Source: Nemertoderma westbladi
Taxonomy: Eukaryota; Animalia; Xenacoelomorpha
DNA: 64,000 nucleotides
NCBI GenBank assembly: GCA_032718475.1
Contig: JAUCBJ010001848.1
Location: 30,884 to 94,883, forward strand
Direction: 5' to 3'
Below are positions 1 to 61,788 of the stretch, one piece after another; within the stretch, counting starts at the first letter, position 1, and every line of letters starts with the position of its first letter. Below the pieces are notes generated by a model that saw only the letters and a list, made by a program, of their open reading frames with translations, was not told the origin of the DNA and did no database searches. The position numbers were made by a program, and so were the translations under genes.

Positions 1-1411
1 CCGTAGCTCTCCATCCCTCTAGCTCCCTTAACTTCCTTGGCGGTTGGTCGCCTTCGGCGCCCGCTGGTATGGGCATCGCTTGCAACCCCGACATCGACTG
101 TTTCGGCGATCCCACCGTCCATCCCAATTCTCGCCCTAGAGAATCCCCCGAACTCCCTGACGAAGTCCAATGAAGTTCGTCTAAGCCTGCCTGTTCCTCG
201 AAGCCGTAACTCTGCGTCCTGGCCTCCTCTTCCCTCTCCTCTGCTTCTATCCTCTCCCGTCTAGCGACTTCTTCCAGTCGCTTTGCTTCTCGTCTATCCG
301 TTTCTAGCTGCTCCCATCTCTGATACGGCGTATCTGTCTCCCCGTCTACCAGATGTCGGCTGTTGTAGTACACCGACTCGCCCTTCAGCCCCGGGTGGTC
401 TACCAGACCGTCAAAGGCCATTTTAAAGGCTCTCCTGTAGCTTAGGGGTGATCCCGATAACAGAAATGCCGCTGGTTCCCTCTCGATAACCACGGTCATA
501 AATAAGTTAAGCAAACTTATCATCATCCAATCTTCCTGCAGGATATATCGCTTCTGATATACCTTTATCGCTCCTCTGCGGAATTGATATACCTCTTGCT
601 TTCCCGGTCTCGCTCCCCACTTTAGCGAGTTCGCTAGTTCTGCTCCGTATTCTTCCCTGAACCTCCCCCAGTCCATCGGTTTGTGGCACACGAGCCCCAA
701 TAGTTGGCCCATTGCCACCGCCCCGCATTGGCCTGTGTTTTCGACTACCCCCAACCCATCCGGTGCCGTCATAGCCATGAAGACCTTCTGCATATCCAGG
801 AGGTTGGTGGCGTCTGGACTGATGATTCTCTCCGCGTCCTCGCGAATCGCCGATCCTACTTTCGTCGTCGACTTCTCTCTTACCAAGACTTGTACCGCTT
901 TCGGCAACCGGTTTAGTTTCGGCTCGTCCTTCTTCCCATACGTTCCTAGATCGAATAAGAAGATGTCCCCATTTGGCGCGGCCAAATGTAGGAGTACGGT
1001 CCTGGCCGACCCCGCCGATCCTCGTCTCGAACCCTCCTCGTCTTCCACGGTTCCCTCGTCGTCTAGGATCATATATCCTCCCCTGTTGACGGACTCTATG
1101 AATCTCTTCCAGTCCTTCCTCGGTGATTCCCTCGGGTACTTCGGAATCCCGAACTTCGCCTCGTCCCCTTTCACCACGTAGTGGAAGTGTTGGAAGATTG
1201 CGTTGTCCAGCGACGGCGTCCCGTATGTCCCGACCAGCCGCTGTTCGTGCATCTCCCGGAAGTGATCCTGCAGCGCTCGTGCCGCGTGACCCCTTTCCAA
1301 CCTCTCGTAGTATCCTCTCATCTTCTCTTCCGGGTCTCTCTCGGTGAAATCCACCAGTATCTCCTTTCCTCCTGACTCCGCCTTTCTCTTTCTGATCAAT
1401 TTGCTCGCCAT
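1..1411 (-). CDS. BEL1 accessory ORF: DnaQ/DEDDy-like (WRN/EXD-type) 3'-5' exonuclease, open to the window edge (>=470 codons)
   Basis: Manual translation from ATG 1411 (MASKLIRKRK...) has no stop before base 1; motifs YMILDDEG (ExoI), LPKAVQVLVREKSTTKVGSAIREDA (ExoII), NLLDMQ, QKRYILQED (ExoIII-like); colinear with ORF 24318-24866. Confidence 0.8.
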   Translation of the reverse strand, partial: MASKLIRKRKAESGGKEILVDFTERDPEEKMRGYYERLERGHAARALQDHFREMHEQRLVGTYGTPSLDNAIFQHFHYVVKGDEAKFGIPKYPRESPRKDWKRFIESVNRGGYMILDDEGTVEDEEGSRRGSAGSARTVLLHLAAPNGDIFLFDLGTYGKKDEPKLNRLPKAVQVLVREKSTTKVGSAIREDAERIISPDATNLLDMQKVFMAMTAPDGLGVVENTGQCGAVAMGQLLGLVCHKPMDWGRFREEYGAELANSLKWGARPGKQEVYQFRRGAIKVYQKRYILQEDWMMISLLNLFMTVVIEREPAAFLLSGSPLSYRRAFKMAFDGLVDHPGLKGESVYYNSRHLVDGETDTPYQRWEQLETDRREAKRLEEVARRERIEAEEREEEARTQSYGFEEQAGLDELHWTSSGSSGDSLGRELGWTVGSPKQSMSGLQAMPIPAGAEGDQPPRKLRELEGWRAT

Positions 1412-1892
1412 TCCGAACACTCACTCGCTCACCTGTAAGGTGGTGCCTTACCAAGGCGCAATACAGATGAGTGATGTATCTAAGATGTTCTGTACGGTCC
1501 GATAATGGCCTATTCCTTACTTAACTGCGCCTTTTAGCCTAAATTATTACTAATTAATTCTGAAGCTAGTAAATACACCCTAATTTCAATTTCTGTCAGT
1601 TACTTTTATTATGTTCCAGAATAACTTTCCTAGTGTTGCCATAATTTGTAACTTTCAGCCCTATCTTATTTATTTTAGTTTAGTTTTAATTCTACTGTCC
1701 TACTACTTACTATTGCCTATGGATTGTTCTATTCTCTAATCCACATTCTGGCCTACTCTGTGGGCCTGTGCAGCACAGCAGTATTCGTCGCGTGGCCACA
1801 CGATTTACCCAGCTGTACTCATATGCCCCCCTCTCGCTACTAGCTGCTAACTAATATCTATATCTTATATATACCCTTCTACCTCTTACTCT

Positions 1893-2420
1893 CTCTCTAA
1901 CTAACGGTACTACGTACCCTCTAACTCTCTAACTAACGGTACTACATACCCTCTAACTCTCTAACTAACGGTACTACGTACCCTCTAACTCTCTAACTAA
2001 TGGTACTACGTACCCTCTAACTCTCTAACTAACGGTACTACGTACCCTCTAACTCTCCAACTAACGGTACTACGTACCCTCTAACTCTCTACTTAACGGT
2101 ACTACGTACCCTCTGACTCTCTACTTAACGGTACTACGTACCCTCTAACTCTCTAACTAGCGGTACTACGTACCCTCTAACTCTCCAACTAGCGGTACTA
2201 TGTACCCTCTAACTCTCTACTTAACGGTACTACGTACCCTCTAACTCTCTAACTAGCGGTACTACGTACCCTCTAACTCCCTAACTAACGGTACTATGTA
2301 CCCTCTTACTAACTAATTAACTAACTGACGGTACTACGTACCTTCTAACTCTCTCCTAACTAGCGGTACTACGTACCTCCTAACTAACTAACTAACTAAC
2401 TGATGGTACTACGTACCTTC
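1893..2420. repeat. 32-bp tandem array (~16 units) containing a GGTAC-TAC-GTACC hairpin
   Basis: Unit CTCTAACTCTCTAACTAACGGTACTACGTACC; GGTAC recurs every 32 nt from 1906 to 2290, then at 2330, 2365 and 2405. Confidence 0.97.
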
Positions 2421-2571
2421 TTACTGACTAACTTCTGCCTACTAACTGCGTACCTACTATGTACTATTATTTTATTTTTATTTTTATTTTTTTGTGTGGG
2501 AAGGGCGTCTCGCCCTCAATCCCACCCCCCTCAGTCCAAATCTTGGACGACTAAACTCTACTCTAACTCCA

Positions 2572-5500
2572 CTAAGGTGCCCCTTCTAACAGACAGCATT
2601 TCCCTACAGCTCTCCTGTAGGTTTTTCTGTCCTTCGCACCTATCTTACCACCTATCCGCACTTCTACCGATCGGACTCTTCCGTCCTCGTCGGAGTAAGT
2701 GCCTACAACTCTCGCCAACCGCCACTGGTTGTTGATGATAGTATCATCCGTAACGATTACGAGATCTCCCTCTCTTAACTCCCTATTTGGTTTCCTCCAC
2801 TTACTCCTTTTATGGAGTGTGGGTAGGTATTCCTCTACCCACCTCCTCCAATATTATTGCTTTAGCGACTTTCCAACTTTGGCGGGAGTGTATGTCATCT
2901 GGGTCTACACCCCGCATATCGATGGTCGCTGGCCTTTCCATCAGAAAATGGCTAGGCGTCAGCACGTCTAGTGACTCAGGGTCATCATTCTCTGGGTATA
3001 GCGGTCTGCTATTAATGATCCCCTCGCACTTCGCAAGCACTGTCCGTAAGACGTCCTCAGTGACCATGTGGGTGTTCATTAGCTTCGTCATTAGACGCTT
3101 TGAACTACCCACCAGTCTCTCGACGCATCCTAGTGTATGTGGCGCATACGGCGTCCTTCTCTCCCACTTTACTTGTCGTAGTCTCATGGCCGCCCTGACT
3201 TCCTCCCCTTCCAAGATGTCCAAGGCCTCTGCCATCTCATTCTCTGCGCCCACAAAGTTGGTGCCGTTGTCGCTGTATATCACTGCGATCGTCCCACCTT
3301 TGCGGTCTCTAAACCTTTCTAAGGCATTAATGAATGCTGATGCGGTTGCATCTTGGGCAAGTTCTATCCCTACCACCCGCGTGTTGTTACATACGAAGAT
3401 GATACCGTAGCGTTTCTCCGTGTGCCGCATCACCTTGATCTTTATCGGCCCGAACATGTCCACACCGCAATGCGTAAATGGCGGGTCGTGCTGTCTTACT
3501 CTACTCGCCGGTAGTGGCGCCATCTCTTGTATGGCTCGCTCCTTCTTCGCTCGTCAGCAGGTCTGGCACTGCCCCACCACCGCTTTTACCTTCTTCCTCA
3601 ACTGTTTGACCCAAAAGGTCCTCCTTATCTCGGTGAGGGTTCGGTTGGTGCCCCCGTGCAATATCGACTTATGGGAGTCCCAGATAATCTGGTGAACTAT
3701 TGGCGATCCTGTTGGAATGATGATGGGTTTCGGTGGTATGATTATGCTGTTGTTGTATCCCACCCTAGAATTCATTACTAGAATCCCGTCGTCATTAAGT
3801 TGTGGCGACAGCGTGATCAGCTCGCTGTCCCATCGGAGGTGCTGTTGGTTACCGACGCGTTCTACCTCGTCGCCATAGTTCTTCTGTTGTTCATAGCGGA
3901 TGACTGCCTTGGCCGCTCCTTCCAGATCTATGGATGTCCTGATCTTCTTGTCTTTGCCAACTCCCGCGAGGAAATTCCCGAAGGCTCTCCAGTACGCCAC
4001 TAGTTTCTTGGTCTTATACCAACTAGAACTGTAGCTGAGGAGTTTATCCGTCGGGTTACCGCACAGTTCTTCTGATTTTGGTTGCACGTCCCTAATCTCC
4101 CTCACCATCTGGGAGTATATCTCTTCTCTCTCTGAATCTCCCTCTTCTCCCTCCGACACTACTTCTGAGCCCGGGTCCACCTTTCTCATCGGCGGCCAGG
4201 CCTCCGTTATTCGCTCAGAAATTGTGGCCCATGTTGCCACAATACTTCCTTCTTCAAGAAAGTGTGGCGTACCACGCCCCTCGACAACAAGTCCGCTGGG
4301 TTCTCGTCCGTTGGGCAGTAGTGCCACCTTTCCAGTTCTGTGGTCGCCCTTATTTCGTCCACTCTATTTGCGATGAATATTGGGTATCTCGTCCTTTCGT
4401 TAGGTATCCAACCAAGTACTACCATGGAGTCCGTCCAGTAGTGTGTCTCCACTATGTTGGGAATAGTATCCACTAGGTAGGCTGTGGCTCTAACTCCTAG
4501 TCTCGCAGCTGTCAATTCTAACTTGGGAACTGATGCAGGAACTGGTGGCGTTGACTTTGCTTTGCTAAAGGCTAGTCTGGGCTTATGAGCCCCCTCTCGT
4601 TGTACTAAGTAGAGTGCCGCTCCGTACGCCTCCAACGACGCATCGGAGAACATGTGTAGGTCCAGATTTGTCATGTTCCCATCCGGGAAATACACTCGTG
4701 GCATGTTGTATGTTCCCATCTTCTCCAAGTCTCCTGTCCACTTACTCCACTGTTTCTTGATTTCCTCTGGTACCTCTACGTCCCACTCATCCTTCAATTT
4801 GTATACTCTCTTGAGTATCTGTTTCCCCGTGACTAATAATGGGGATGCTAGGCCTAGGGGATCGTATATCCTTGCTATATACGATACATAGCCCCTCTTC
4901 GTGTGGATGTCTGCGCCCTCCTGGCTCAGCTGATACTTCAGTTCGTCTGTCTCTCTGTTCCACACGATTCCCAATGCCTTCTGTTGAGATTCTGTTCTCT
5001 TATTCGCCATGTCCTGCCCTTTGGCTGTTGTGGGATTATCCATGGTCGATTCTGGTCTCTTGTCCTCTATCGCCTTGATAAATTCTTCTGAACTGGATTG
5101 GAATTTGGTCAGGTTAAAGCCGGATCCTTTTAGGATGTCGCGAACCTCGCGCCCTGTGTCCAGTATCTCCTTAACCGTATTTCCAGACTCCATTCCGTCG
5201 TCTACGTAGAAGCCGCATCGAATCATATCGACGGCCCTAGTGCTGTATCTATCTTCCTTCCCCTTCACTGTGTCTCTGACTGCCGTAGTCGTCGTAAATG
5301 AAGACGACTTGGCCCCCATGTTTTGTACTACCATCTTATATGCCGGTATTATCGACGGTTCTTCCTCGCCGTTATACCATAAGAAGCCCTGACTGTCGCT
5401 ATCTTCCTCCATTACATGGACTTGGTTGAACATGCCTTCTATGTCACACGTGAAGGCGTGTTTCCCGTTTCTAAATCTAAGTAGCACCTCTATGCCCGAG

Positions 5501-8500
5501 TTGTATATGTTTGGGCCTTCTAACAGGTAGTCGTTTAAGCATTTTCCGTTGGTCTTTGCCGATGCGTCAACTACCATCCGCAGTTTACCTTTCTTTGGGT
5601 CTAAAGCCACGTGGAGTGGCAGGTAATATGTCCTGTCTGTGTTCGGTTCATCGACCGGTAACTCCACGGCCCATCCTTTCTCGACGTACTTCTTGATCGT
5701 TCTGTGGATGTACTCATTCTTCTCGGGGCTCCGTTTTAGTGTTTGTTTCAGCTTGCGGAGTCTCGTGAGTACCATCCCTCTATTATCGGGCAGTGGTATC
5801 TTCGGTAGTTTCCATACCATTCCTATAGTATACCGCCCCTCATCGCATGTCATCGATTCCTCCACGCTTTGTAAAGCCTGCTTGCCTTCTACCGAGGTCC
5901 CGACCCCTGTCTCTTTCAGTCCCTCGAAATCTTGTCTGAGCAATCTTTTAAGCTGCTCCTCTGCTCCCTCATCACCCATTTCCTGCATTGTTCCCGCGAA
6001 CATGCATCCTGATGTCTCCGACATCCTAAATGGTATCTTGCTCTTGATTGGGCCACTCAGCGTCCACCCGAATGGTGTTAATATCGCCACTGGGTCACAC
6101 TGCTTGTCTTCGCCGAAGACCGTTTGCATTCTTTCGTGGGCCGTTGGGCAGTCCATTCCTACTATGATGGATACCTTCCTAACGTCCACATCTGGGATTG
6201 AGAAGTCAATGTCGTCCAGGAATTTATATTGCTCGACCTCAATGTTGGTTGGCCGCCTGGCATTGATATTAATTGACTCTATCACTTGGATGGGGTCGAT
6301 GGTTGCCCCATAGTCGCATCCCGGTGCCACCGCTGCAATTGCGCACCGTCCTGTTCTCATCTCCAGGATCTCATCTTTGCTAGAGATGGTTGTTACCGCC
6401 ATTCTGCTTGGCCTCGTTCTCAATCCTATCTCTTCGGCCACCCATTCCTCGACTAATGTGAAGGCAGCTCCACTATCAACCAGCATTAGTGTTGTTACTG
6501 ATCGATTGCCTTCTCCAATCACTCGCACGGGTACTACTCCAAGTAACACCGTTCCGCTCTTCTTCGCCCCTACTGTGCTCGTTGCCATCGTCTGGCCTCT
6601 CCTCTGACCAAACTTGACCGGCTTCTCCTTGCATTCCCTTGCTCTATGTCCACTCATCACACATCGCGAGCAGATTTTATTGCTCAACGCATAATCTATC
6701 TGATCTTGCCTAGGTAGCGCCTGCCAGTACCTGCAGTTCATGGTTTGATGAAGCGCATTTGCGTGTAGCTGGCATTTGCTCTTTGGGTCGTAGCCCTCCT
6801 TATACAGCGCATTGCGTATCGCAGCTGCGTTTGTACCAAAGTCCCTACTATTCTTATTGTTTGGATTCGGCCTACTGGACGTACTGGGGTTATATTTATT
6901 CGTGTTGTTGTTGTTCCCCTGTCCGTTCCATGGTGTTGTCTTATCTTCGGCTAGCTGTGGACTTGCAGTCCCCTGCGTCGCTGCATATGGCAATGATTGC
7001 CTGAGCCTCGGTAATGTGCTTGATGTATTGTGCTCTGGTTTCGGTCTATGGTAATCCGTCTTCGGTCCCTTTCCCAGGCTATCTTCGCTATAGACTGGGT
7101 CAGTTATTAGTTCAGCCTCGTAGTTTAAGAAGCTTGACATTTCTTCTAAACCCGGTTCCGCACCCTTCTTGTCTCGAGTGGAGAAGGCGATCTTCCTCCA
7201 CTTGTTGCGCAGCCAGTTCGGTAGTGCCTGCGCTATCGTGGTGATGTTGTTGGACGCGTTGAGCTCATATGGCGCGTCTAGTGTCTTCAGCACGATTAGC
7301 GCCTTTTCGACTCTGTTAGCGAACGTCTTAATGCTAACGGGATTATCCTGTAGGCCACCCGATGTTATGCCTCTCAGTGTCTGTCTGATGATCTTGGCCG
7401 GGTGCCCGTATTCCCTGTCCAGTGCCCGCCATGCTGTCGTGAAGCCGCCCTCTATTCCTTGATATTGCCTCACGATGTCGTATGCTGGGCCTCCCGTGTA
7501 TACTTGCAGATACTTTAGGCACTCCGCCTGCGTCAAGTTTTTTGTTAGTATTTCGTTACTATACATGCGCCGAAACTGTAGATATTCTTCCGGCCTACTC
7601 CCATCGAATTTGAATGGTTCCACGGGTGGTAACTCGATCCTCGTTTTCAACGCATCGATCAACATGGCCATCCCCATCGCCTGCGCTTCCAATGGATTCG
7701 ATGGATGCTGTATAGTTTCTCCTGTCTGGTGCGGTTCGTCCGTCCTATTTCTTGATTTTCTTTGACTTGGGTATGTCATCGGGGGTAGCGGCCCCCTCCA
7801 TATCTCTGTGTCACACGACCTATTTTCATCCAAGGGTCTCGTTGTTCTTGCTCCTATCGGGGTATATTGTTGATATTGTGATGGGGGAATGTCACCCTGT
7901 CCCCCCCCCCCCCACCGGTATGTTTGGTACTGGGGTTGATGTTAATATGTTGGGGCCCATACACCTATCCACAATAATTCCCCCCTCCCCTGGGTATATG
8001 TTATGTCCCTGCATGCTGTAGTCATACTGCTGTACTGGTACCGATATAGGCCTATCAGCTTCTGGCCTACTCGCCGGTATGTATTCCGCGACTTCCGGGT
8101 TTAATCCCGTTGTCCGCGCTATCCTATCGCCTACATTGCCTCTCCCAGTATGGCCTATGGTATGTGCAGTAAGGCCTACAGTATGTCCTACAGTCTGCAT
8201 GTGTCGCTCGGGATCGAAGTTTATTCTTCTCGAATAATCCTCCCCGTGGCTGCCGTATTCTCGATCGGTAGGTACATTCCGTCGGAAAGTTTCTCTTCGA
8301 CCCCCCTCTCTACTGTTCTCGTCTTCGTACCGGTACATCGCGTACCCCTCCATCGGCGCGTAATGCACCTCATCAGGTCGCATCTCTCCGGGGCGACGGC
8401 AATCTCCCGGAGTCCGACCCCACTGACTCTCCGTTCTCATCTCGACTACCGACGGCTCGCTATCCGTCCTCGCTCTTCTATCGTTCGCGGCGATACTTCT

Positions 8501-11130
8501 ACTACTGTCTTCTCTTCTTCTCCTTTCAGTGGAGTGTTCCCGCTCGTGAGATCTCTCGTCGACCTCCCGGTTAAACCCCACTGTTCTTCTTCCCTCTTCT
8601 GATCGGGCTCGACGCTTCGTCCGCCCTCTCACGACGTCAACCTGTCTCTCTCTGCTCGGTCGCACACCGTTTGGGATACTCGCAATCCCCCTATTACTCT
8701 CCGTCGCCGGGTGTTGCGGTTTACCTATTTCGGCCCGCGCATTATCCGCTGACGGCTGTGGAGCACTCTCTGCCCCCCCCCCCCTTTCGCCGCTAACTCG
8801 CTGTTGTGGGGTTCTTGTAGCACCCCCCCACTCGCCACATCTAACTTCACTATCTCTCATCCCGCTACCACATCCCTCTCTCGTCGACACATCAACCCTA
8901 CCGCGGTTGGGTCTATTCACCCCCGCCTCTCCCTCTGCTAGTGCGTGGCCTACCAGGCCCTCTATCCCCTGCCTACCAACTACGTGGCCTACCAGGCCCT
9001 CGCTGGGTCTACCCAACCCAGCCACTCCCTGCCTATCAACTACGTGGCCTACCATGCCCTCACTGGGTCTACCCAACCCAGGCGCTCCCTGCCTACCAAC
9101 TACGTGGCCTACCAGGCCCTCTCTGGGTTGGCTCAATCCCGCCACTTCCGGCCTACCAATTGTACGGCCTACCAGGCCCCCGCCTGCCTGGCCATACACG
9201 CCCGACGTGTTCACGTTAATAGCACCCATATTGGAAACGGAATTAATTTGTTCGTTTGAAACAAAATCATTTGAATTATTTTGTAAATTCGGGCTTGGAT
9301 CATTATTTAAATTATTTGAATTATTTTGCACGTTCAAATTGAAATTATTATTTGTATTTAAATTTAAATTACTGCTACTAGGTAAAATATTATTTGCTGC
9401 AATAAAAGGATTAGGGTTGTCCAATACGGTACTATTAATATTAATGACGTCTACTATAGAATTATTATTACCCCCCCCCCCCCCCCCCCCCCCCCGCCCG
9501 TACGGTCACACCAGTCTTGGGTCTGTCGGTCCCTGTAAGTGGGGTATTAATAAATGTATCCACGGCCCCTGGCTCCTCGAAAATACTCGAGCTAGCCCCA
9601 CTCTCAGACGCCCCTATTCGCGCCAGTTCCCGTTCGCGCGTGTGTATAGCTTTGTACCCTGTAAGCTCACCTTGACGTTTCTCTAGTTCTTTTCGCTCAC
9701 ACTCCTTCCTTGCCATTCTCTCTTTACACTCCCGTACGTCCCGCTCGGCCAATTCCAACTCTCTTCTAGCCCCCTCCCTTCATCTCGCCTCACGCTCTCT
9801 GCGTTCGTTTTCCTCTCTCTCCTCGCGTTCCTTGCACTCGTTTTCCTCTTTCGCCTCATGTTCCCTACGTTCCGCCTCACGCTCTGTGCGCTCATTTTTC
9901 TCTCTCGCCTCGCGCTCCTTTCACTCGTTTTCCTCTTTCGCCTCACATTCCCTACGTTCCGCCTCACGCTCTTTGCGCTCAATTTTCTCTCTCGCTACAC
10001 GTTCCCTGCGTTCCGCCTCACGCTCTTCTTGTTCCTTCCTCCCTACTTCCTCACACTCCCTAAGGCTTCTCGCGGCCCTTTCGGCCCTCTCTCCGGTTTC
10101 CTTAATCAACGCCATTTCCCTCTCTAGCAGCACTCTCCCCTCCTCTAACCGTCTACCTACTTCCCTTTGACCTTGCTCTATTAAATCGAGACGGTACGTG
10201 GCATTTATCTCTCTCACCCGTCTTCCTTTCGCAGAGGATGTAGCAGACTTATCGGTTGTAACGGATTCCCTCCGCCTCCCCGTCCTACTAACTTTTCCCC
10301 GCCTCCCGGAACTTCCTCTGACCGACGAGGCCGAATCCTCGGGGTTAACCTCGGATTCTTCGTCCTCAGGTCTCTCCCAACCCACTAATTTTACTCCCCG
10401 GGCATCGACTAAGTATGGCCCTACGTACACTACGCTAGGTTCCATACCCCTATACCGCATACAGTCAGACATACAGTCCCTCGGCAACCCCTCTCGCTCT
10501 CTCCTTGGCCAGTTCTCTTTGCCCGAAGCACATTAGGTAATAAAAGTGTCTATTCGACTCACCTAGTCATTTCCTCAGTCTCATCTCGTCTATCTTCGCC
10601 CCCTCTTTGGCCTCCTTTAACAGTTTCTGGGTCGCGTTGTAGGCCCGTCGAAGTCGATCAGAAACCCCGACGTCCTCGTCGCCGACCTCTCTTCTGTCTC
10701 TCCGGGTCCGACATCGTACCGTCGGCCCCACCGTCGCCGTTTCGGTGGGCCGCTCGTCGCCCTCGGCCTGTGGCTGGCCGGTGACATCGGTACTGACATC
10801 TCCTCCATCTCTCCGGGTCCGGCGTCGTACCGTCAGCCCCACCGTCGCCGTTTCGGTGGGCCGCTCGTCGCCCTCAGCCTGTGGCTGGCCGGCGACATCA
10901 GTACTTCGACCCACGTCCCGTGTCGACTCATCTCCTTCTCCCTCCTTTCCGCTCTCTCCTTCTCTCGGCTCGACCTCGGGTTCCAGGCGGCCCCCCTCAT
11001 CCTGAACTGCCGGATGACACGTTACCGATGGGTCCGGCGTTGTGGGCCTGTACCGCCTGGTTGCGGCCTCGCGGATCATTAATTCTTCGTCCGGGGTCCG
11101 CGTCGGCGTTGTCTCTCCCGACTGACTCAT
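2572..11130 (-). pseudogene. BEL1 gag-pol polyprotein, broken by frameshifts and stops (ORFs 10567-11130, 9921-10487, 9468-9758, 7892-9424, 4207-7833, 3554-4327, 2810-3523)
   Basis: Gag (FDGS, CQLH..HQTMNC, CSRC..GHRAREC), PR, RT, RH and IN domains; breaks at poly-C runs (~7901-7913, ~9471-9496), near 4207 and near 2850, plus a TGA after CQTC at 3554. Confidence 0.88.
8935..9180 (-). repeat. 60-bp coding tandem repeat (20-aa GLVGHVVGRQGxxGLGRPSE) in the gag N-terminal extension
   Basis: About 3.5 copies visible in both the DNA and the 7892-9424 translation. Confidence 0.9.
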
Positions 11131-11190
11131 CTCGCTTGGTTCGATTGGTGGAGTTTAGCTAGCTAGGGCGGCAACTCTGAATTTAATTAC

Positions 11191-11740
11191 TGTGACGGGA
11201 TCCAGGAAGGATCCCGGTTTATCCGGTTGTTTAGTTCACGCGTCCCCGCCGTGTGTGAAAGGTAAAAAGAGTTCGTGTCGTTCGTCGTATATAATAATCG
11301 GCTGTACGGGTATATAGATATAGGTATAGATATAGATAATGTTGTCGTACATGGAAGGCGGGATACGGTAATTAAAGTCCCGGTCCTTCCCTAGCTAAAC
11401 TAACTAACCTAACTAGCACCAATACACCATACTAAGATAACTGAACTGAAATGATTACTGCCAACTGGCTATATTGCACGGGTTGGCCTTGTTAGTCTAC
11501 CTAATCGATGCCTTCCCCCCCCCCTGATTGGTTGATACCCTTGTTGGCGCCCTTTGGAGTGTTCCCGTTCACTCCACCTGTTCTCTCTTGGTTAGGGGTT
11601 TGGCCCCTGACCCTCATTGTGTGTTTCTCCTTCCCATTTTGTTGGGGTGGCACGAGTGATTGATTACCCAATCTCGTGGCCCCCAATATTGCTTATCGGC
11701 TTAACTTTATGGGGTGTTAGCGGGATTGAATAAGCTAACA
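11191..11740 (-). repeat. BEL1 5' LTR (~550 bp, TGTTAGC...GTCACA)
   Basis: TG...CA termini; start TGTTAGCTTATTCAAT and end GGATCCCGTCACA match the BEL3 LTR (TGTAAGCGGATTCAAT...GGATCCCATCACA); TATA-like AATATAG followed by TCAGTT initiator. Confidence 0.8.
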
Positions 11741-11769
11741 TACCACAACACCATGAATTACAGCGCGCT

Positions 11770-12918: not shown

Positions 12919-13659
12919 ATGTGGGACCTTTGATGGCCGCCACATAGCTTTACCGTATTTTAGTAATTTTGTATTTTGTATTACTGTATGTGCATTTGTA
13001 ATCCTCTTCACTGTAGATAGAGACAGCGGTGGAATTCCATTGTCTTTATATGTGAACATGGAGGGTAGTACCCTTATGTATCACATAGGAGCGGGATTGT
13101 GTGTACAGTAGGAATGGAATTCCACTTGGAACCCACAAGTGAGACAATTTTTCAAAAATTATTAGACAAATCCATTTATTTGGATTTAAATTTAAGAAAA
13201 ACGATTCTCCAGTGAATGCAAATTCTAGAATACAGCTAGATAAAAATTAAAATTTGGGGAGGACAAGAGCGGATGGAAGGCTTGCGAGCCTACCGATAAA
13301 TTTTTTGGAAAAAGAAAACCGGCCTTGTTCTACGTAGTCGTGTCTACTATTATTTAGACCAATTAATTCTCGACTGCACTATTTTCTTTTGGGAATGTAG
13401 TGGGGAAATTAAAAGGTGAGTATTTTAGACTCGCGGCGAGTTTACCCGGAATTCGTTTTTTATCGGCACATTTTTTTTTTTTTGGATTAGGAGCCAGTGC
13501 GAAATCACGCGAACCCGAAATCATTAGGCAAATGGGTTGGGGTTTAGAGCAGAGTTGAGCCAAAAGCCGACAAACTCTAAGTCACCTCACATCTAACCTC
13601 TATTTTGTGCTTCATCTAGTAGAAACGTAACGATATGTAACCATATATATTCGTATACG

Positions 13660-15723: not shown

Positions 15724-17391
15724 CACCCGTTATGTCTCGGCGAAGGACATACCTTTTACGATGGAGGAAGGACGCATACTGATGTATTCCGACGATTTCT
15801 CCAACCCTTTTATAACACCGATGCGCACTGCGAAGTTTTCACGCGAGCGGGACTTAGCGTTTTCAGGGACGTCTATCTCACTCACGCGGGAAGTCTAGTC
15901 GACAGACCGTCGATGTTAACGTTAGTACCCTACGACGGGGAACGCCACGCGGAATTCGAACGCCCGGAAGGATCCTGGAAGGCTCGCGAGCCTACCGCCC
16001 ATCACGACGATGTGGATCCGACCGAGTTGGCGCTAATAGACGAACCGTTGCGGCAACTCATAGAGATAGAGGAGAACCTTCCGAGGAAGACGCGAACTGA
16101 GATACGCGAGTTGGAGAAAAGCGATGCCATGGTTTGTGTACAACCTACGGAGACGAACATACCGACTGACCCGGATGATGAGAATTATCACGTGGACGGT
16201 AGCGCTCGCCCCATCGGAGATCTCATCTATGAGCGAGTTTGGTACCCTGCCAACACTATTTGTGGCAGATGCGGGGCAACTGGCCATCACGCAAAGAAAT
16301 CACGCAATCATCACGCAAAGAAGCACATATCTCTACCGGATTTAGTATGCAACTGGTGCAGGGATCAACGTTCGCACACTTTCTACACTTGCTGGCGTTT
16401 CGTGGCGCAGTGCACTTATTGTAATATTAAGGGCCATAGGGCATCCGAATGTCAACTTAGAGACGTCCCCTATGAGCACATGTCAGTTAAAATCGTTCGA
16501 CAGTTATTCGACCATTGGGAGGATCTAGCAGACGAGCATGTATCGACGCAGCGACGCCGTTTCCCTATGAGAGCACATTTGGGATTTTGGGCCGTAAACC
16601 CTCTCATAATGTCAAAGGAAGGATATGTATCGGCTATGCCTCAGTATGATGAATTGTTGGAGGTGTTGGATATATTGCCATTGGACAGCGGATTCAAAGT
16701 TGTGCGGGACTATTTCTTACAGGTGCACCCCGACAACAAGAATACTTGGAACTTTCAAACTGTGGTGAACAAGATTACCGCCGGAGAATTCGATAAACTG
16801 CGAGTTGAACAGCGGAATTGAGGAGCCCGGCATTCGATAGCTTAGGTATACCGGAGCGCATTTTATCACAAACGCGTAACCTCGTGTATTCTGGACGAGA
16901 CCGACGTTTTGCGTGAGACTGGCTTCAAGGCCACGTCGTTAGCAGAGAAGACGCGTCACCCACAGGATGATCAGCAATTTCGTATACTCAAAGCCCAGAA
17001 GGCCGGACAAGAAATAAAGAAGATAGTAAATGTCGCTGAGAGGACGACATCGAAGTCGCAAATCCGGATGACTCGGGGCACGGTTTCCCTTGCTAGAGAA
17101 CCACACGGATGGACGGGATACGCTTTGCCGGAACCCATTAGGATTCAAACGACGTCAGAGAGCGAGGTGTCAGCGGACGGAACAGTCCCACCCTTTCGAC
17201 TTCCTCCTAGCGTTGTGGAGACTCGATCCGATGTTAAGCCAACAGTTGGAATCGGACGAGGATTTAGAGGATTGAACGCACGATGGATGTGCGAAACTCC
17301 CATCGTCCCCTTTCCTAGTGTTTTTGAACCACCGACAACTCGACGCCGAAGTCCGAGCCCAGTTCGACATCGACCACCACCATCGCAATAG
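15724..17391 (+). pseudogene. In-frame continuation of the BEL2 accessory ORF with CCHC zinc knuckles
   Basis: ORFs 15913 and 16909 are in frame with 13660 and separated only by TGA 15721, TGA 16819 and TAG 16843; CGRCGATGH, CNWCRDQRSHTFYTC, CTYCNIKGHRASEC. Confidence 0.75.
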
Positions 17392-18058
17392 AGGACGTGG
17401 ACGAGCCCACTCAGCAAAGGAATAGGAAAGCGAGAAGAAGGAAGGCTTGCGAGCCTACCGATATTTGGATATTTATATTCGGATATTATATTTGGACACT
17501 ATATTTGGGTATTTATATCAGACATTATGTATGAATGTTGGATTTGGAGGAGCGAGATGGAAAGGAAGGCTTGCGAGCCTACCGTTAGCAATTAGTGCTC
17601 AGGAGAAGATATCCAGACCAGCAGGACGAACTTTCATATCGTCAAAGGGACACTTTAAGACTTATTTAAAGGATTTTAGCGCTTTATGTTTATTTTATAT
17701 TTGAACTGATTTAATTTGGTGGAAGTTTATTATGTATATTTACAATATAAAGATTTATTGAAAGAAGTTACAATTATTTGTTCGATTTGTTTTGATTTAT
17801 TTGTTCTGATTTGTTTGATTTGTTTATCTTGATAACCGAAAGCATTTTGTATTTTAGGCACTAAAGTTAATTGGTAAATTTGTATTTGTATGTACGATCG
17901 ATTGTATTTACGCCGTATCTGCAATATTAAGTATGCAATAATTAGATAGTGATTATTTTATTTTTTAGGCCCCACCAGTAGATTTAGAATTAGTTTGTAA
18001 ATATTTTGTATTTCGATTGGTGAAAACAGTCTTACTTACTGTTTTCATGGAGCGGTGA

Positions 18059-18935
18059 TGAATTATTTCACTATTAGATAGCATTTGTAGTTTAACTTTA
18101 ACGTAAAAACTTTCGAAAATCCGACGCATTTTGAGTAAGTTACAGTAATGTAATATGCCTATTCATATTTGTATACATAAAACCCCTAGTTACTCTCGTG
18201 GTGTAGTGGTCAGATTGTTAAGGCGTTGGTTACATTACAGATAGGTTACGAGTTCGAATCCCGGTCGGGAAATTTGTATTTTGGGGCCATTTATTTTCAT
18301 TTGGTACAGATTGGTAAGCCAATGAGGTGCGTACAACGTATCGAACGATGAGTTGGGCCAATCATAGGGCATGGAATATCTTATTGCTCCAATGTGAGGC
18401 CATCGAATACTCTCGAAGGTTCTAGTGAATTCTATGTCCTAGATTTAGTATATAAAGGGCTGGTTTGCCTTCGGTTATCACTTGTAAAATAACACTTATC
18501 ATTGTACTTGCTTAGCTTACTCTTGTAAACTTGCTGCACTAGTTGCACTAATCATTTCGTTATACTTTGTTAGTTTCTTGTTGAAACTATTGTAATTCTG
18601 TTTGATAAATCTTTTGCTAAACTGTAAATACACTGCAAACTCCTGAACATGTTTTCTTTTGGTCCAACCTTGGGACAGCCAAACATCGGGAAGATGGCAG
18701 CCTAGACCGTTAGGCCGTCAGCAACGCAGGGGAAAGATGTCCACAACACGCTAGCGCCCACATTGGATTTGACCGCGCACCCCCTTCGCCCTTCGAAATA
18801 CTCCACTTGCCATGCAGCGCCCACTTTATGAGGAAGGTAAGACTTTGTTCGACGCCCTTGCCCGCCGTAAGACCTATAGATCAGGGTAAGCGTGACGCCG
18901 TCCTGGATGCCGCAAAATTTAGGATCAAATAATTA
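18059..18935 (+). repeat. Putative BEL2 3' LTR
   Basis: Follows PPT-like CATGGAGCGGTGA; imperfect terminal inverted repeat TGAATTATTT...AAATAATTA; TATATAAA at 18449; partner LTR not in window, so the right end is uncertain (alternative CA end near 18748). Confidence 0.55.
18193..18271 (+). ncRNA. tRNA-derived Pol III promoter unit inside the putative BEL2 LTR
   Basis: A box TGGTGTAGTGG (18199), B box GAGTTCGAATCC (18250), acceptor-like TCTCG/CGGGA; anticodon arm not canonical. Confidence 0.6.
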
Positions 18936-19214
18936 TATTTAGGCAGTTCTAGGCCCCCTTTGTCAGTCCTGCGAACCCCTGGGTTAACCTGCATTTCTCA
19001 CAGGTGCGAACTATTGCCATTCGTCAGTACGCGAGTACATAGGTACGGACAGCATATGTTCCATAATTTAGTGATTCGTAGTACTGACTGTTTGGTACCG
19101 GTTCGCTTTGTAGAACATACATTAGTACCCCCCCCTGCCTGGAGTTAGTTATTTGATCAGGCAAGGAGTATTTCTGCTACCGGCACACCGCTTGGCCTAG
19201 GGAGGTTTTATTAA

Positions 19215-20747
19215 CCCTATTAGTACCGGGCTATAAAATGTTGTACAAATACCGGAAGGGGGTCATATTGACCCCCCCCCCCTCTAAAATCTACAAATAT
19301 TTACGAAAACGTCTGATTTTTTGTTTGTACGTAGGTATCACTTGTCTGGATCCGACAGAAAAAAAAATTTTCGAAAAAATGTACTGGGGTGGTTATATTG
19401 CAGCACCAAAATTACAAGTAGTGCACAATTTTCACCAAATTTGAAAGTTACATTTTCGGCTAATTATTTTTCTATACAGGTGTTCTGGGGTGCAAAATAC
19501 ATTGGAAAATATTAAAAAATGATATGATTACTATAAATGGCTGTTTAGTCCTCTCTGCGTAGGAAAAAAATGAAAAAAACAAGTAACCAGCACTTTTCAG
19601 TTAGAACACAAAATTTGTAATTCACTTATACGATGCTATAAATTCATATTTTCAGGTTTTCGAGGGCGCTGATTCTAATGGAATACATTTCTAATATGCC
19701 AGATCATTGCTACTTGTATTTTTCGGCGTAATTTGGCAAATTTTGGTGCTAGCACCAAATTTCGTACCCATCACCAAAAAGTACAAGTTTGCGATGTCCA
19801 GTGCTGTTTTTATTGATTCCATCGGATTCAGGACCCTCATAAATCCGTACAACGCAAGAAACAAGGTGATACTATCTACTTATCAATTTGCATATTTTCC
19901 AAAATTTGGTGCTGGCACAGCAATTTTCACCCACCGGCGAAAAATACAAGTTTGAGAACTCTTATGAAATTTTTACTGATTCCATTGAATTCATAACCAT
20001 CACAAACCCGTATAACGCAAGAAACAAGGTGACACAATCAAAATTTTGGTGCTAGCACCACATTTTGCACCCACATCGGAAAAATACAAGTTTGAGATGT
20101 CTAGATCGATAATTATATTTTCCATTGAATTCAGAACAGCCATAAACCTCTAAAACGCAAGAAATAAATTGTCACAAGCAATTTTATCTATTGAATGGAT
20201 TTTCAAAATTTCGTGCTAGCACCAAAATTTGCACACAGCACCGAAAAATACAAGTTTGATACGCTTGGTGCAACTCGTATATATTTCATTGAATCGAGAA
20301 ACCCAAAAAACCCCAATTGCGTAAAAAACAAGTTTCAAACGATCAATTTACAAAATTGACTTATTTCAAAATTTGGTGCTGGCATCAAAATTTGGCACCC
20401 ACCGAAAAAAACAAGTTTGAAATTTCTAAATAAATTTATATGAATTCCATCAAATTTCTAACACCAAAAAACCGGTGTAAATCAAAAATAGAGATGTTAC
20501 AATTCATATTTAATGAAATGTAATTTTCAAAAAACGTCTCAAAAAAAGTGCCAAAAGTAGGGTTAAAAAATGGTGCTATAACTCGAAAAGTACCCAATAT
20601 TTTTGAAAACGGTTTTCACTACTAGGAAGACAATAGATTTTTAGGAAAAGTCATAAAATTTCAGATTCCTAACTGCGTTTGTTTCAGAATTATAATAAAA
20701 AAACCACGAGGGGGGTCATATTGACCCCCCCCCCGGGTTTAATAGGG
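19215..20747. mobile_element. Non-autonomous piggyBac-like DNA transposon
   Basis: TTAA target duplication on both sides, CCCTATTA...TAATAGGG TIR, subterminal GGTCATATTGACC; partial copies at 38252-38665 and 45430-46190. Confidence 0.9.
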
Positions 20748-23700
20748 TTAATATCCTACCGCGCCTTGCCACGTACTGATAGGTATTGCTGCTATCTACC
20801 GCGGCAACAAAGTTCTAGAATTAAATTTGTATACCAGATCAGCTAACGTACGGTAGTGATTAACCCCTATTTCTTATCTTACAACCAGAATCTGGTATTA
20901 GTGCCGATCACGGGTGTAGTTACTAACACCGTGGTTGCCCATTGAGTTGTGGATAGGAAGGAGAGAGCTTTGACGTCATTTGTGAGTATAAAGTTCTACA
21001 AAACGCGACTAGTTCATTTTAGTAGCTAGCGCACGGTATCATTTCGGTCAGAAAATCACTAAAACCTAGTGAAAAGATATGAACCAAAATTGTTTTATTT
21101 GTAACACACCCACACACACACGCCCTAAAACATATTTACCCTTAGAGTTCTACTAGTTATAGCGTACTATATATTACTTTAGGCAGAATTTATCTGTATT
21201 TGTAAATTAGGATCTGATATTTAGTTACGGCAAGAAGGAGTATTTCATTTTCGTTATTAAACTGTTGTTTTCTGCTCAGCAGTATTGTTACATTAGGCAC
21301 GACCTTGTTTAGGCTGATTCAGACAGGGAGATCAGTATTGTAACGCTAGGGCTGTAACCCACCTAGCTCGTATATAAACCATATAAATCACACCGCGGCA
21401 AGTTACGGTATTTAGGACTGTCAGCGATAGTTAGGATTCGCTGCGCGGGGATTGTTTTCCCGTGAGTTTGGTCTGTTACTGTAACTGTACATCTGCCTCA
21501 CCGGTTAGAGGACAGGTATCCTTTTGTCTAGTTCGTAGGCATTAGACCCGCTCACGTACATAGAATAGACACTAGGCTCTGTTCCTCGCCAGTAGTAGTT
21601 TGTGTATTGTATCTGTTTGTTTAGATATCCTGGACTGGGATTTGTTGTCAGATACTGTACGAGCCCGTATACATTACTAGATCTTACGGTAAGATACATC
21701 GTTACTAGGATCCGGTAAGCGGTATACTACTGGACCTTACAGAGTCACTACACAGAAGCTGAATGCTCTCAGTGGTGTGCTACTTGTTGGACACTAATAC
21801 AGATAATTCTACTTTACTAAGTTACTTATCACTACATTATTACTTACAATTACAATGGGTTGAGATTACAATCTCTAAATGAACAATAAACAAGTTACAT
21901 GTACAATTTTTAGGGTAATTTTACAAGAAATCTACAAACCAGCCAAACAAGGAGTTAGAATATCTGGTTCTTTCAAACTGACAGGAAACTACGGTAGTTG
22001 AAAACAATAAGTAGTAGTAAGTAAATTGCTTTGTCCAGATAAGGAAATACCACCGTCTGACGACTTATAGTCTTAGCTCTATAAGTACTACGTTATATAC
22101 CCCGGAGTGTCCCTACCTAGAGGTTAATTACCGAAGCCAACCAGAGCTAACGTGCCTATTAACCACGTTACAACACAAATATACTGCCTACACACTAAAT
22201 TACTTTCGGAAAGCACTGTACTCTAAACCCTAGATTAGGTACAAGTACTTATACAACAAATAACCAGTAATATACTTGAACAGCCAAAATAACCTGCTGT
22301 GGAGTGACTGGAGCACAAAATCACCAGTCTTTACCTACGCCAAGCAGCCCTGATGTAGTACCGGGGTTAATTTAACTATAACGGTATGTATAACAAGCAC
22401 AATTACTGTAGGAATAAACTTGGGGAATTGGAGGTTGCGAATACTCGCATAGACTCTGAATAATAAATATTACGCTACCCGTGCAGACTATTCAAATAAA
22501 ACACAGACCAAATGCTGGCAGACTACTGTCAAGCCTAAACAAACTACAGTATATGCAGACTCCGAAATGGTTAGTTAGTAGGCGTTCTAACCAAGTAGTA
22601 TGACTTATTCTTTCGGGGGGGATTTACCTTACAACACTGAATGCCCCCACCTTCCTAACTAGCACTTTATCGGACAGAAACTCTACACACACTGCAATCG
22701 CCTCAGACCTAACAACAGTTAGACAACAATCTGGCCTACAAATTATTTATACAATCTGAGCAGGCTTACACGCCTTCTGCTCAATATTACACTTACAGAT
22801 AAATAAAACTGACAGAAATAAATAAGCTCTAAAAGAAATAAGGGGTCTACAGTCCCTACTTTCTTAAACAGCCTACTAATATACAATATATCACAATCGA
22901 AATAATACTGGTACCTGTAAGTACCGGTTCGGGTGGTTGGGCAGTTAGGCCTACAGTTTACCGTCCGACCGGTACATTCCACTTTATTGCCTACGGTGCA
23001 ATAAAGAACCGAACAAATCTATTAATGTTTGCGCTTTTAGACCTTTAGCAGTTTAACCTGCCAATTTTAGTTGTCCTCTTGTTTATAAATCGACTTTAGC
23101 CTATATCAATTACCTAGTGTACTGAAGTTACATCAGCCGAAGCCAGTCCGTGCGCGACCTATCACCCACGGTTTTGGGAGACTGGATTCGGATTCCTTGA
23201 GAGTTATTGCAGTGTAGACCTACTGTATTATTCGATTGATCGTTACTATATAATCTCTGACAATATATTTACTTTCGGGGAAATATTAACAGTTCCTTTA
23301 GGACGTGGCGTTTTAAGTATAAAAACAGAGTTATGACTTAAACTAATCACAACTAGATGGCCACAGAGTTTCGTAAATAGCACATTTTTTAGGAGATGCT
23401 TTATTAACCTTCACACTACTTCACACGACTTCACACTACTTCACACTACTTCGCACTGATCTGCCGACCGTCACTGAATTTGATCATATATAAGGAGGAT
23501 CGCAACTGACACACATAGGGACCATGAAATATCATTTAATTCACACAAAAACCACTATAATTTAAGTAGCAGTTGCTACCGGTAAACCTGTTCCTCTTAC
23601 CTTCAGTAATCAAGAAGATTGGGGGTTTTATGATTATTTATCGGTATTCTCCAAATATAACAGCAATATCCATTAATATAACGACAATTAATAACAAAAG

Positions 23701-24317
23701 TAAAATAATGCGGTGAACAGTCAGTATGTGTTACAATAGTAAATAATGCAATGTTCAGTTAGTATGTCGAGTTGAGACAAGTAATAGTCCAGGTGAGTTA
23801 AGTTAATAGATTTACGTTCTTATAATCAAGGCCATCTGATGTTTCCTAGGCCAAAGTCTGAAACTTCTACACAGAAGCACAGAAGATTCCGAGCCGGTTC
23901 TGATGCTAAGAAAAAAAGTAAACAAAGACCGTAATGCATTGCGCGAGTTTCCATAGGCCTCTGTCAGACATAAAGGGAAAATTGCTCTGATTGGCTGAAT
24001 GAGGCAGAACAAAGAAAACTCCACGTCCAGAAAGAATCAGCTGACAGATTTCGTCATCTGGGCTCTAATTCCTTCCCGTCGCGTAGTTGGATAAATTTAG
24101 GGCTATTTTAGAGTATTCTGCGCATTGCGGAAAAATGACTTGTTATGTCCGCAAAAGCTTTTACAACAAGATAGGAGGTAGGCCATCACTGATTTAAACT
24201 AATTAAGACCATACTTAGCTATCTCTTGCCCTACTGAGCCTTTCTAAGGCACCACCAGTCTGGTGAGAGAGGAGAATCGTGATGGTGGAGAAACTATGAA
24301 GGAGTTTATCGTATTCC

Positions 24318-24866
24318 ATGGAGAGGGGCGGATATATGGTCTCGGATGACGTGGAGACAGTTGAGGATGATGGTGGGACAAGAAAGGGGTCAGGAGGGTC
24401 GATTAGAAATATATTGCTGCATTTAGTGGTGGTGAACAGAGATATTTTTCTGTTTGACCTAGCGACCTATGGTAAGAAGATCGGGCCAAAGTTGAACCGC
24501 CTACCAGATGCGATGCAGAAGCTGGTAAGGTCAAAGACTATGATGGAGATTGGATCAGCGATACGCGGCAACGCGGAGAGGATTATTGGACCAGGCACCC
24601 CGTATCTTCTGGACATCCAGGTAGTCTACATGGCTATGACGAAACCTGATGGATTAGGATTAGTGGATAACACGGGACAATACCGAGCCTTGGCAATGGG
24701 TCAGTTGATGGGACTCACGTGCCACAAGCTGATGGAGTGGAACAAGTTCCGAGAGGAATACGGTGCAGGACTTGCTGATTTACTCAAGTGGGGGGCGAGA
24801 CGGGGAGAGACAAGTCATATCACGTACAAAAGGGGGGGGGGGGGGGGGTTAAGACACATCGTGTAG
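24318..24866 (+). pseudogene. Decayed homolog of the BEL1 accessory exonuclease
   Basis: GGYMVSDD, DIFLFDLATYGKK..PKLNRLP, IGSAIR, MAMTKPDGLG and FREEYGA..LKWGAR all match BEL1. Confidence 0.85.
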
Positions 24867-25426
24867 ACGAATATATAATATATGTACTATAGTCAAGTAC
24901 AGCCTTTTTCTAACTAGCTAGTGGAACTGGGGACTAATTGACTATAACAGGAGGACGAGACTTTAGACGGATCACACTTCTTGAGTGCGACGGCATAAAC
25001 GAGAATGTGAGGCCCGACTGAAGTGAGTGGGGATAAAACGGGTTGAGCAAGGGGACCATGGGGAGAAGGTGCTAGAGTTAAGGGAGAAGAGTAAGGGGTG
25101 CGAGGTCCGAGTGTGGGGAGCGAGCATGGAGGGGAATGAGTCCTAAGGGACTGGCGAGAGAGGAAGGGACAACAAAGTCCGAGAGGTTAAATTGTGTGAG
25201 GAGTGAGGACGATTGTCTAAAACAGAGACGCCAGATGCCTTGGCACAGCTTAGCTCGCAGATGAACCAAGGAAGGGTAGTGATAACAGACCCATTGGGGC
25301 CGGACTGGAAATTGACTCCGAGAATAAAATTCCACCCCACACCCAATATTAGATTGGATTCCAGCGGAATTAAAGCGCACTTAAGGTTGATGCTATTTTC
25401 TCACTGGGAAGATAGCATGGGGGGAG

Positions 25427-26049
25427 TGTAAGCGGATTCAATTCCCTGCACTACCCACCGAAAATGGGCTAAGTGGGATTTTACCAATTATAGTTGGCGA
25501 GGTGACATTACCAATAATAATGTCACCTCATAACCGACTCGGGCGATACGCATCGCCAGCCACAGGGAAAGTTGAGTGGTCAAACCATCTCAGAGGGACA
25601 AAGGGGCTAGGAAGGCTAGCACATGGGGACAGTGGCAACAGGGAGTGGCGAGGTGACAATTAATCAAGTTAAGCCAATGATGGGTGGGGAAAACACATTG
25701 GAAGTGATTAGAGCGCATCTATTGGACAGGCCACTCAGTAGAGTAGAGGTGATTAATATGTGTTAATAATATAACCGTTGCACTTATTGATTCTGATTCA
25801 GTTGGTTTCTATACAGTTGTGAGACCGGAACAGTTTTTAACCGTCGTCATTACCGTGCTATTATATTCTGACTGTGCTATTATTATGTTCTTCGATTACA
25901 GCAACTGACAGTAAAAACTCAGTTATTTAAACGGCCTTTGGCTTATTACATATATCCAGACTACAGCTTTAGCAGCCTACGGACGCAGCGATGCGTATAA
26001 CACACACCGGTCAGGATTCATACTGCCAACTCCGTTGGATCCCATCACA
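25427..26049 (+). repeat. BEL3 3' LTR (623 bp)
   Basis: PPT immediately 5'; TGTAAG...ATCACA termini; AATATAA followed by TCAGTT, as in the BEL1 LTR. Confidence 0.78.
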
Positions 26050-26331
26050 ATTGTTACTATAGCAATACCGGTACCATATCGTATTACATCTGATAATATT
26101 TCTGTGATATAAATGTTTAATGTATTTTATTGAGATACCGGAAGTATCCCAGATAATCGGTTTGACCTTTGCAATGTGTACGGTGAAGGGATTGATCTAT
26201 ATTAGATAGTAGGTAAGGCATTGCTAGAGGGGTTTATAGATTAATTGTCGTTTGTTTGATTAAAGTTTGGAGTTAATATTTAATTGTGATTTCCCTGTTT
26301 TAATATTGGCGCAGTGTGATTTACATAAAAC

Positions 26332-61709: not shown

Positions 61710-61788
61710 ACCTTTACATGCCGATAATGAAAGGTATACTGCTCCCTTGGATATGTCTGGGCATATGTATACCCAGTCCCTGTGTGTT

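Follow-up and report, generated by a model that had tools for sequence, protein, structure and literature searches.

A stretch of 64 kb of DNA from Nemertoderma westbladi (contig JAUCBJ010001848.1, positions 30,884 to 94,883; hereafter the window) was found to contain two BEL/Pao retrotransposons placed head to head, BEL1 and BEL2, and one relic, BEL3, within its first 26 kb. As an earlier interpretation made from the letters alone (the sequence-only reading) had claimed, an accessory open reading frame (ORF) accompanies each of them in the sense orientation. This gene is under strong purifying selection and has been kept in frame in two divergent families, and its product probably adopts a WRN/RNase D-type DEDDy 3'-5' exonuclease fold, as predicted from language-model features and profile comparison. 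Our preferred reading, to which we assign a probability of roughly 0.4, is that this post-integrase gene, which is not an env, encodes a predicted exonuclease that trims the RNA of its own element from the 3' end.

An accessory gene past the integrase of BEL/Pao elements

The elements and their accessory ORFs comprise the following features, where LTR stands for long terminal repeat.

1 to 1411, minus strand: accessory ORF of BEL1, 470 or more amino acids, with a predicted DEDDy domain at about residues 95-310 (D117, E119, D192, Y289, E293)
2572 to 11154, minus strand: gag-pol of BEL1 in several pieces, from Pfam matches and reading frames
11191 to 11740, minus strand: 5' LTR of BEL1, 550 bp, TG...CA, with end-to-end homology to 25427-26049
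11741 to 12918, plus strand: integrase of BEL2, its 5' end cut by the BEL1 junction; DUF5641 at E 1e-18, 42% identical to the BEL1 integrase
13660 to 17391, plus strand: accessory ORF of BEL2, a single frame interrupted by stops at 15721, 16819 and 16843
17596 to 18649, plus strand: tentative candidate 3' LTR of BEL2, in which three CCAAT boxes, one TATA box and, at about 18195-18270, a tRNA-like stretch were noted
24252 to 24866, plus strand: BEL3 relic of an exonuclease ORF of the BEL1 type, internally deleted at its 5' end and lacking ExoIII
25419 to 26049, plus strand: polypurine tract (25419-25426) and 3' LTR (25427-26049) of BEL3, by homology with the BEL1 5' LTR

The gag-pol of BEL1 was recovered in the pieces 11154-10567, 10532-9921, 9505-7892, 7941-4207, 4363-3554 and 3553-2810, with a tail to about 2572. 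Pfam matches to Peptidase_A17 (E 1e-39), DUF1759 (E 1e-10) and Integrase_H2C2 (E 4e-11) were obtained, the first two exceeding their curated cut-offs, and the Pao-type order of protease, reverse transcriptase (RT), RNase H and integrase places the element in BEL/Pao. A stop and frame changes interrupt the integrase, which terminates at about 2572. The accessory ORF starts about 1.16 kb past this stop, in the sense orientation, with an ATG at 1411, and its 470 codons stay open to the window end, so that the C-terminus lies beyond it. The length of BEL1 exceeds 11.7 kb, as had been proposed.

Since BEL1 abuts the BEL2 integrase at 11740, the gag, protease and RT of BEL2 are absent from the window. 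Its assignment comes from DUF5641 and from its placement among BEL integrases in a tree; in this quick tree of 72 integrase rows, the BEL1 and BEL2 integrases were sisters (support 87) on long branches, and a single origin was neither shown nor rejected. The BEL2 accessory ORF begins 0.74 kb past the integrase, also in sense, and runs through the segments 13660-15723, 15724-16821 and 16846-17391. It carries a predicted DEDDy domain at about residues 455-687 (D471, E473, D561, Y666, E670) and three CCHC-type knuckles at 16261, 16348 and 16411, the first of which is degenerate.

The third ORF belongs to the BEL1 type, with 63% identity to the BEL1 ORF over 175 amino acids (24315-24839). The claim of three BEL copies with this gene needs a qualification: the relic has Val at the ExoI Glu position and Asn at the ExoII Asp position, the ExoIII segment is missing and no pol was found nearby, which marks it as decayed. 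It fixes the place of the gene inside the element. A polypurine tract lies 560 bp past it, followed by an LTR that aligns with the BEL1 5' LTR at a global score of 19 (300 shuffles, -117 ± 19; best non-self of 634 windows). The BEL1 5' LTR has TG...CA ends, and the BEL3 LTR behind its tract is homologous to it; the window contains a complete LTR pair for none of these elements. Because the BEL1 LTR matches the LTR downstream of the relic, the order in the BEL1-type family is exonuclease, tract, 3' LTR, which supports the env-slot position proposed earlier. The alternative that the spacer between integrase and ORF is itself an LTR, leaving the ORF outside the element, was rejected, as the spacer has no likeness to the BEL1 LTR (scores -119 and -147) and the BEL3 LTR lies downstream of the ORF.

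Logan contigs from three DNA runs of two samples covered all 30 bins of 1-19200, with 50,417 (run X1), 23,548 and 25,795 contigs placed; both accessory ORFs are therefore repeated, summed contig depth being no measure of copy number. As background, 80 BEL integrase loci from metagenomes were collected, 25 of them with more than 1.5 kb downstream. A profile built from the window gave no match better than E 0.11 among 1765 ORFs of such loci, the profile being too weak to exclude distant exonucleases. In 10 control loci with paired LTRs, which share one accession prefix, represent a few families and are hence not independent, the 3' LTR lay within about 150 bp of the integrase. Long ORFs past the integrase in six of the 80 loci (L152, L153, L159, L187, L195, L202) were rejected as env-slot genes: five carry a DUF1759 gag domain, and the sixth has no family match and is followed by the contig end. 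These ORFs, which follow a short spacer, are probably gag in permuted assemblies, probably circular or collapsed.

Identity of the accessory protein

The ordered motifs that the sequence-only reading had listed for BEL1 and BEL2 were all present. The kinship drawn from them held for the ExoI-ExoII core, with 27% identity over 135 amino acids and a local score of 88, against a mean of 33 and a maximum of 55 in 2000 shuffles (0/2000 as good). It did not hold for the flanking motifs taken alone, as the likeness in the N-terminal DFxExD...RGY or the C-terminal LKW/YxxxE was not above chance (286, 425 and 288 of 1000 shuffles as good).

Two kinds of comparison support the WRN/EXD/mut-7-type DEDDy identity suggested earlier. 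In the ESM Atlas, whose scores are not calibrated for protein parts, 24 of 30 matches were clusters bearing PF01612 for BEL1 (0.94, 169 shared features, the family on 34% of members) and likewise 24 of 30 for BEL2 (0.93, 176 features, 38%), the top BEL2 match being named Werner syndrome-like exonuclease. With hhalign, comparison against 60 bacterial PF01612 proteins gave a score of 26.1 (E 0.0024), while 100 column shuffles reached 11.1 ± 1.7 (maximum 16.8), 100 block shuffles at most 20.2 and the reversed control 14.2; against a DEDDy subset of 29 proteins, E was 4e-4 over 95 columns, with ExoI and ExoII in register. With a mixed profile, the BEL1 ORF ranked first among 266 ORFs of the window.

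Seven columns are invariant in the 29-protein subset: D, E, K, D, Q, Y and D. An unguided MAFFT alignment placed D117, E119, K184, D192, Y289 and E293 of BEL1 and D471, E473, K553 and D561 of BEL2 on these columns, the Gln column being missed. Both proteins thus have the D-x-E of ExoI (D117/E119 and D471/E473) and an ExoII Asp eight residues past the conserved Lys (K184-D192 and K553-D561). This D-x-E, K-x7-D and Tyr-x3-acid spacing is common to them and to the WRN-exonuclease/EXD2/mut-7 group (PF01612), their nearest clusters by language-model features; they differ from that group in staying below every curated threshold, in long insertions, in the ExoIII Glu and in being encoded by retrotransposons.

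Several results weigh against this identification. The hhalign probabilities were only 12% (60-protein set) and 35% (29-protein subset) and concern ExoI-ExoII only, and the first-ranking HMMER score of BEL1 was not significant (E 0.28). The canonical Y-x3-D of ExoIII is absent; Y-x3-E was found instead in both proteins (Y289/E293 and Y666/E670), with an Asp one residue beyond E293 in BEL1. The shared D-E-D-E variant noted earlier is upheld by motif only: MAFFT puts Y289/E293 of BEL1 on the invariant Tyr and Asp columns and the BEL2 ExoIII away from Y666/E670. No Pfam (E up to 1), NCBIfam or PHROGs family was found for the domain, and no sequence homolog was found in searches including 1.84 billion representatives (BEL1 only) and length-limited searches. 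Owing to the ExoIII Glu, the predicted domain is a variant rather than a canonical member of the DEDDy group.

Further searches returned little. A profile of 35 NrnC-like bacterial proteins picked up none of the three accessory ORFs, sequence searches of the PDB gave only designed TIM barrels and noise, and searches of plasmid, viral and metagenome contigs gave no homolog of the accessory ORF (exact look-ups 0/4). The two AlphaFold2 models had pLDDT values of 35.7 and 34.3, too low to judge the fold, and in searches with them, which are uninformative on the fold, every Z stayed below 5 and every E was 1 or higher. On these poor models RNase AS ranked first (E 1.1), and EXD2, at rank 18 with Z 2.8, had the longest alignment among 50 rows (107 residues, rmsd 4.5).

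An env identity was also considered. The N-termini are charged, and the highest hydropathy over 19 residues was 1.35 and 1.48, none being above 1.5, so that neither a signal peptide nor a transmembrane anchor was detected. Because a transmembrane segment is lacking, the ORF is not an env, the C-terminus of BEL1 lying beyond the window.

Two further strings were observed in these proteins. A similar His-Pro...Gly-Glu...Tyr string follows the ExoIII helix in both (397-370 on the minus strand; 15724-15760 in BEL2, just past the stop). The N-terminal 450 or so residues of the BEL2 protein (13660-15000) contain a Cys/His cluster, C149-x2-C and C176-x-H-H, with no family match.

Purifying selection on the accessory gene

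Selection, which the sequence-only reading had inferred, was borne out by comparison of copies. Between BEL1 and the relic, pN/pS was 0.27 (CI 0.20-0.35), with 91 of 161 differences at third positions and synonymous sites saturated. Among BEL2 copies, 27 variant sites were found on 15550-15950, one of which is the stop at 15721; this stop is not shared by 99-100% of the depth in each run. The remaining sites were synonymous in 25 of 26 cases, against an expected fraction of 0.29, and the nominal P of 5e-13 overstates their independence because they are linked in subfamilies. The synonymous sites include all six past the stop at 15721 and a change at the E670 codon. Since that stop is not shared and selection extends past it, the nuclease runs on into the CCHC knuckle region in other copies. 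Other BEL2 copies in the DNA-run contigs also lack the stop at 16843.

Possible trimming of element RNA

In the preferred reading, the accessory protein would be made from a spliced subgenomic mRNA; acceptor-like strings lie upstream of the ATGs of both ORFs. It would bind element RNA, in BEL2 through the CCHC knuckles and perhaps at a repeated hairpin, and would remove single-stranded 3' tails up to a duplex. Jointly, these three steps would take about half of the remaining probability. In BEL1, RNA derived from the LTR may pair with the leader beside the 5' LTR, and the nuclease could trim it back to the 3'-OH from which reverse transcription begins. Known self-priming LTR elements rely on RNase H cleavage. 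That this BEL lineage gave up host tRNA priming altogether, its own LTR RNA being trimmed into a primer by the element-encoded DEDDy exonuclease, is a narrower version that we hold to be improbable. The candidate cis features are these.

1420 to 1480, minus strand: putative splice-acceptor-like string, about 22 nt upstream of the BEL1 ORF ATG
1893 to 2433, minus strand: 32-bp tandem array in the BEL1 spacer between integrase and ORF, 16 units with a 13-nt hairpin motif
11152 to 11190, minus strand: BEL1 leader directly past the LTR, with no TGG-type primer site and partly complementary to the LTR
13275 to 17583, plus strand: five copies of a 20-nt hairpin in the BEL2 cassette, at 13275, 14431, 15977, 17440 and 17564
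13416 to 13620, plus strand: putative donor- and acceptor-like strings bounding a possible leader intron of the BEL2 accessory ORF

Trimming is supported by the succession of an exonuclease and CCHC knuckles in BEL2, as this is the layout of Trypanosoma brucei RNase D (TbRND), described in part of PMC7797062 as a DEDDy exonuclease whose RNA substrate is held by the CCHC zinc fingers that come after it, and acting in 3' trimming of small RNA. TbRND differs in being a cellular enzyme with four fingers and the canonical fourth Asp (from the same account, PMC7797062), and the likeness is architectural because no significant match was obtained (Foldseek rank 16, E 2.4, poor model).

The five BEL2 hairpins, where none is expected by chance, adopt the same fold and have their internal mismatch in common; one variant is G-U-compatible, and on the sense strand the stem stays paired despite the changes in it. 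Two copies lie inside the ORF, in different codon phases. Their stability is modest (z -0.75 to -2.9).

The version with a self-made primer draws support from the BEL1 leader. The tRNA primer site TGG..., which is typical without being defining, was not found next to the single copy of the BEL1 5' LTR, whereas all 10 paired-LTR controls have one after the 5' LTR. Leader nucleotides 1-9 show complementarity to LTR nucleotides 365-373, and leader nucleotides 23-39, next in order, to LTR nucleotides 340-352. The register is that needed for self-priming, as an RNA ending at LTR nucleotide 373 would extend straight into the LTR end. Complementarity of 9-mers like that of the leader occurred at 22 of 11,109 BEL1 positions, and the paired-LTR controls reached at most 7. 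No joint was found among those listed in run X5, a run only guessed to be RNA.

Other points count against a role of this pairing. The duplex was matched in strength by 6 of 500 shuffles and by 63 of 556 other 40-mers of BEL1, and the pairing was found after the fact, in a single copy. The candidate BEL2 LTR is followed by a TGG-containing string without such an LTR complement, and TATA-like boxes found further downstream than the paired LTR segment make the BEL1 transcription start uncertain. Primer or RNA trimming, one of the three roles proposed by the sequence-only reading, gains indirect support.

Alternative functions

The strongest of the alternatives, in our estimate a doubtful one, is counter-defence, in which an active DEDDy nuclease would degrade or mis-trim host piRNA or siRNA precursors or element-derived double-stranded RNA. 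Expression apart from gag-pol could be achieved by a separate ORF with acceptor-like sites, and the families are abundant (50,417 contigs placed in run X1). Mature piRNAs are 2'-O-methylated and protein-bound, which counts against such a role, and the cis hairpins and the missing primer site would be left unexplained. The family closest by features, of WRN/EXD/mut-7 type, includes small-RNA pathway enzymes according to part of PMC5408684, and the arenavirus ExoN has been described as an immune suppressor (10.1101/2021.02.01.429129). If small RNAs are what the nuclease attacks, an animal retrotransposon would carry an anti-silencing gene of a rare, enzymatic kind.

Alternatively, a weak or dead nuclease might serve as an adaptor, binding the repeated hairpins so that element RNA is exported, localised or packaged. 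We regard this as unlikely. It would accommodate the Glu in place of the ExoIII Asp in both families, the constant mismatch and G-U-compatible variant of the five hairpins and the CCHC knuckles; inactive RNA-binding DEDD derivatives, EXD1 and Maelstrom, are described in a section of PMC5408684, and an extra zinc-knuckle ORF occurs in Cer19, an element with a DUF1759 gag (from an extract of PMC7084138). However, two families with only 27% core identity have kept the Asp and Glu of ExoI, the Asp of ExoII and the Tyr-x3-acid motif, which fits catalysis better than binding alone, and the hairpins are not unusually stable.

It is quite improbable that the ORF is a real, selected cargo whose match to DEDDy motifs is superficial. 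The lack of a curated family match and of homologs, the unusable structure models and a C-terminal half without significant alignment would fit such a cargo, but two independent Atlas searches and a shuffle-controlled profile comparison agree both on one family and on how four invariant residues line up.

Proofreading or end-trimming of cDNA for an unusually long element is very unlikely: WRN- and polymerase-type DEDDy domains do act on DNA (in the portion of PMC5408684 on these domains) and BEL1 exceeds 11.7 kb, but the ORF is separate and not fused to the RT, the copies are highly diverged, and the descriptions of the much longer LTR elements Ogre and Burro in the relevant passage of PMC6431247 include no such domain. 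Of the three roles proposed earlier it is the least likely.

Comparison with known systems

The Juno and Vesta lineages of bdelloid rotifers are Ty3/gypsy-like. DEDDy ORF3s have been described in these LTR retrotransposons and in Athena/Terminon elements, with 3' processing as the proposed role, in the rotifer passages of PMC5408684, and the description is repeated in part of PMC6431247. The novelty implied by the sequence-only reading was therefore too high, these ORFs of Juno, Vesta and Athena being already in print (PMC5408684, same passages).

The rotifer ORF3s are likewise RNase D-like DEDDy ORFs in the env position, without a transmembrane segment and with an altered acidic motif (PMC5408684, as far as those passages go). 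The acidic motif is written DEED there and reads D-E-D-E here. The carriers here are BEL/Pao, whereas the rotifer passages give no BEL case, and BEL2 adds CCHC knuckles and cis hairpins, a comparison made by description only. The rotifer extra ORFs showed no significant departure from neutrality and were published, in the same passages, without a function or sign of selection; the BEL/Pao gene is strongly selected and belongs to abundant families. DEDDy cargo in LTR elements is already published, and the selected BEL/Pao carriers extend it rather than form a new kind.

In a part of a BEL survey (PMC3118150), env is the only extra gene mentioned, and nucleases are not. Literature searches aimed at BEL and exonuclease, covering sources other than Repbase, Dfam and subscription papers, returned no BEL case. 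Cer19 of C. elegans shares an extra zinc-knuckle ORF (Cer19-ORF2) in a DUF1759-gag element, and no exonuclease is mentioned for it in the Cer19 extract of PMC7084138.

Self-priming LTR elements without a TGG site have LTR sequence complementary to the region directly past the 5' LTR (from an excerpt of PMC5006619). BEL1 resembles them in that its LTR is complementary to its leader; the known cases use the first bases of the transcript, and none is described in that excerpt with an accessory exonuclease or in BEL.

The presence of such a gene in BEL/Pao, under strong selection, in abundant families and with candidate cis partners, namely the missing tRNA primer site, the self-complementary leader, the hairpins and the CCHC fusion, suggests a recurrent need of LTR elements and supplies specific substrates for testing. 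If true, primer making would give DEDDy genes carried by retroelements their first function and open a new route to start reverse transcription.

The 3' region of BEL2 and other elements in the window

The candidate BEL2 LTR has a 9/10 terminal inverted repeat, but this is only one of 10 such equal pairs in the scanned range. Summed contig depth is raised in the bin 17921-18560, which lies within it. The tRNA-like stretch at 18195-18270 contains A- and B-box-like strings followed by a T run, and ARAGORN and Rfam identified neither a tRNA nor an RNA family in the region, this stretch included; it could be a self-encoded primer-like RNA or the head of a SINE. Past the candidate LTR, in 18650-19220, a string with TGG resembles a degenerate BEL primer site. 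This stretch is repeated in the DNA runs, and a second, truncated copy may have its leader here. One contig of run X1 joins BEL2 at 15828 to a loose end resembling the BEL1 accessory ORF near 170-200, and is either a recombinant or an artefact.

A non-coding, piggyBac-like MITE with short terminal inverted repeats and TTAA ends occupies 19221-20751, with pieces at 38272-38672 and 45426-46187. Two Gypsy-type elements (26103-30033 and 58374-63747), in which no third ORF was seen, are young insertions, as judged by their near-identical LTR pairs of 203 and 202 bp. Between perfect 215-nt inverted repeats at 32276-35313, RT and GIY-YIG-like ORFs were recognized by eye, and this element looks Penelope-like.

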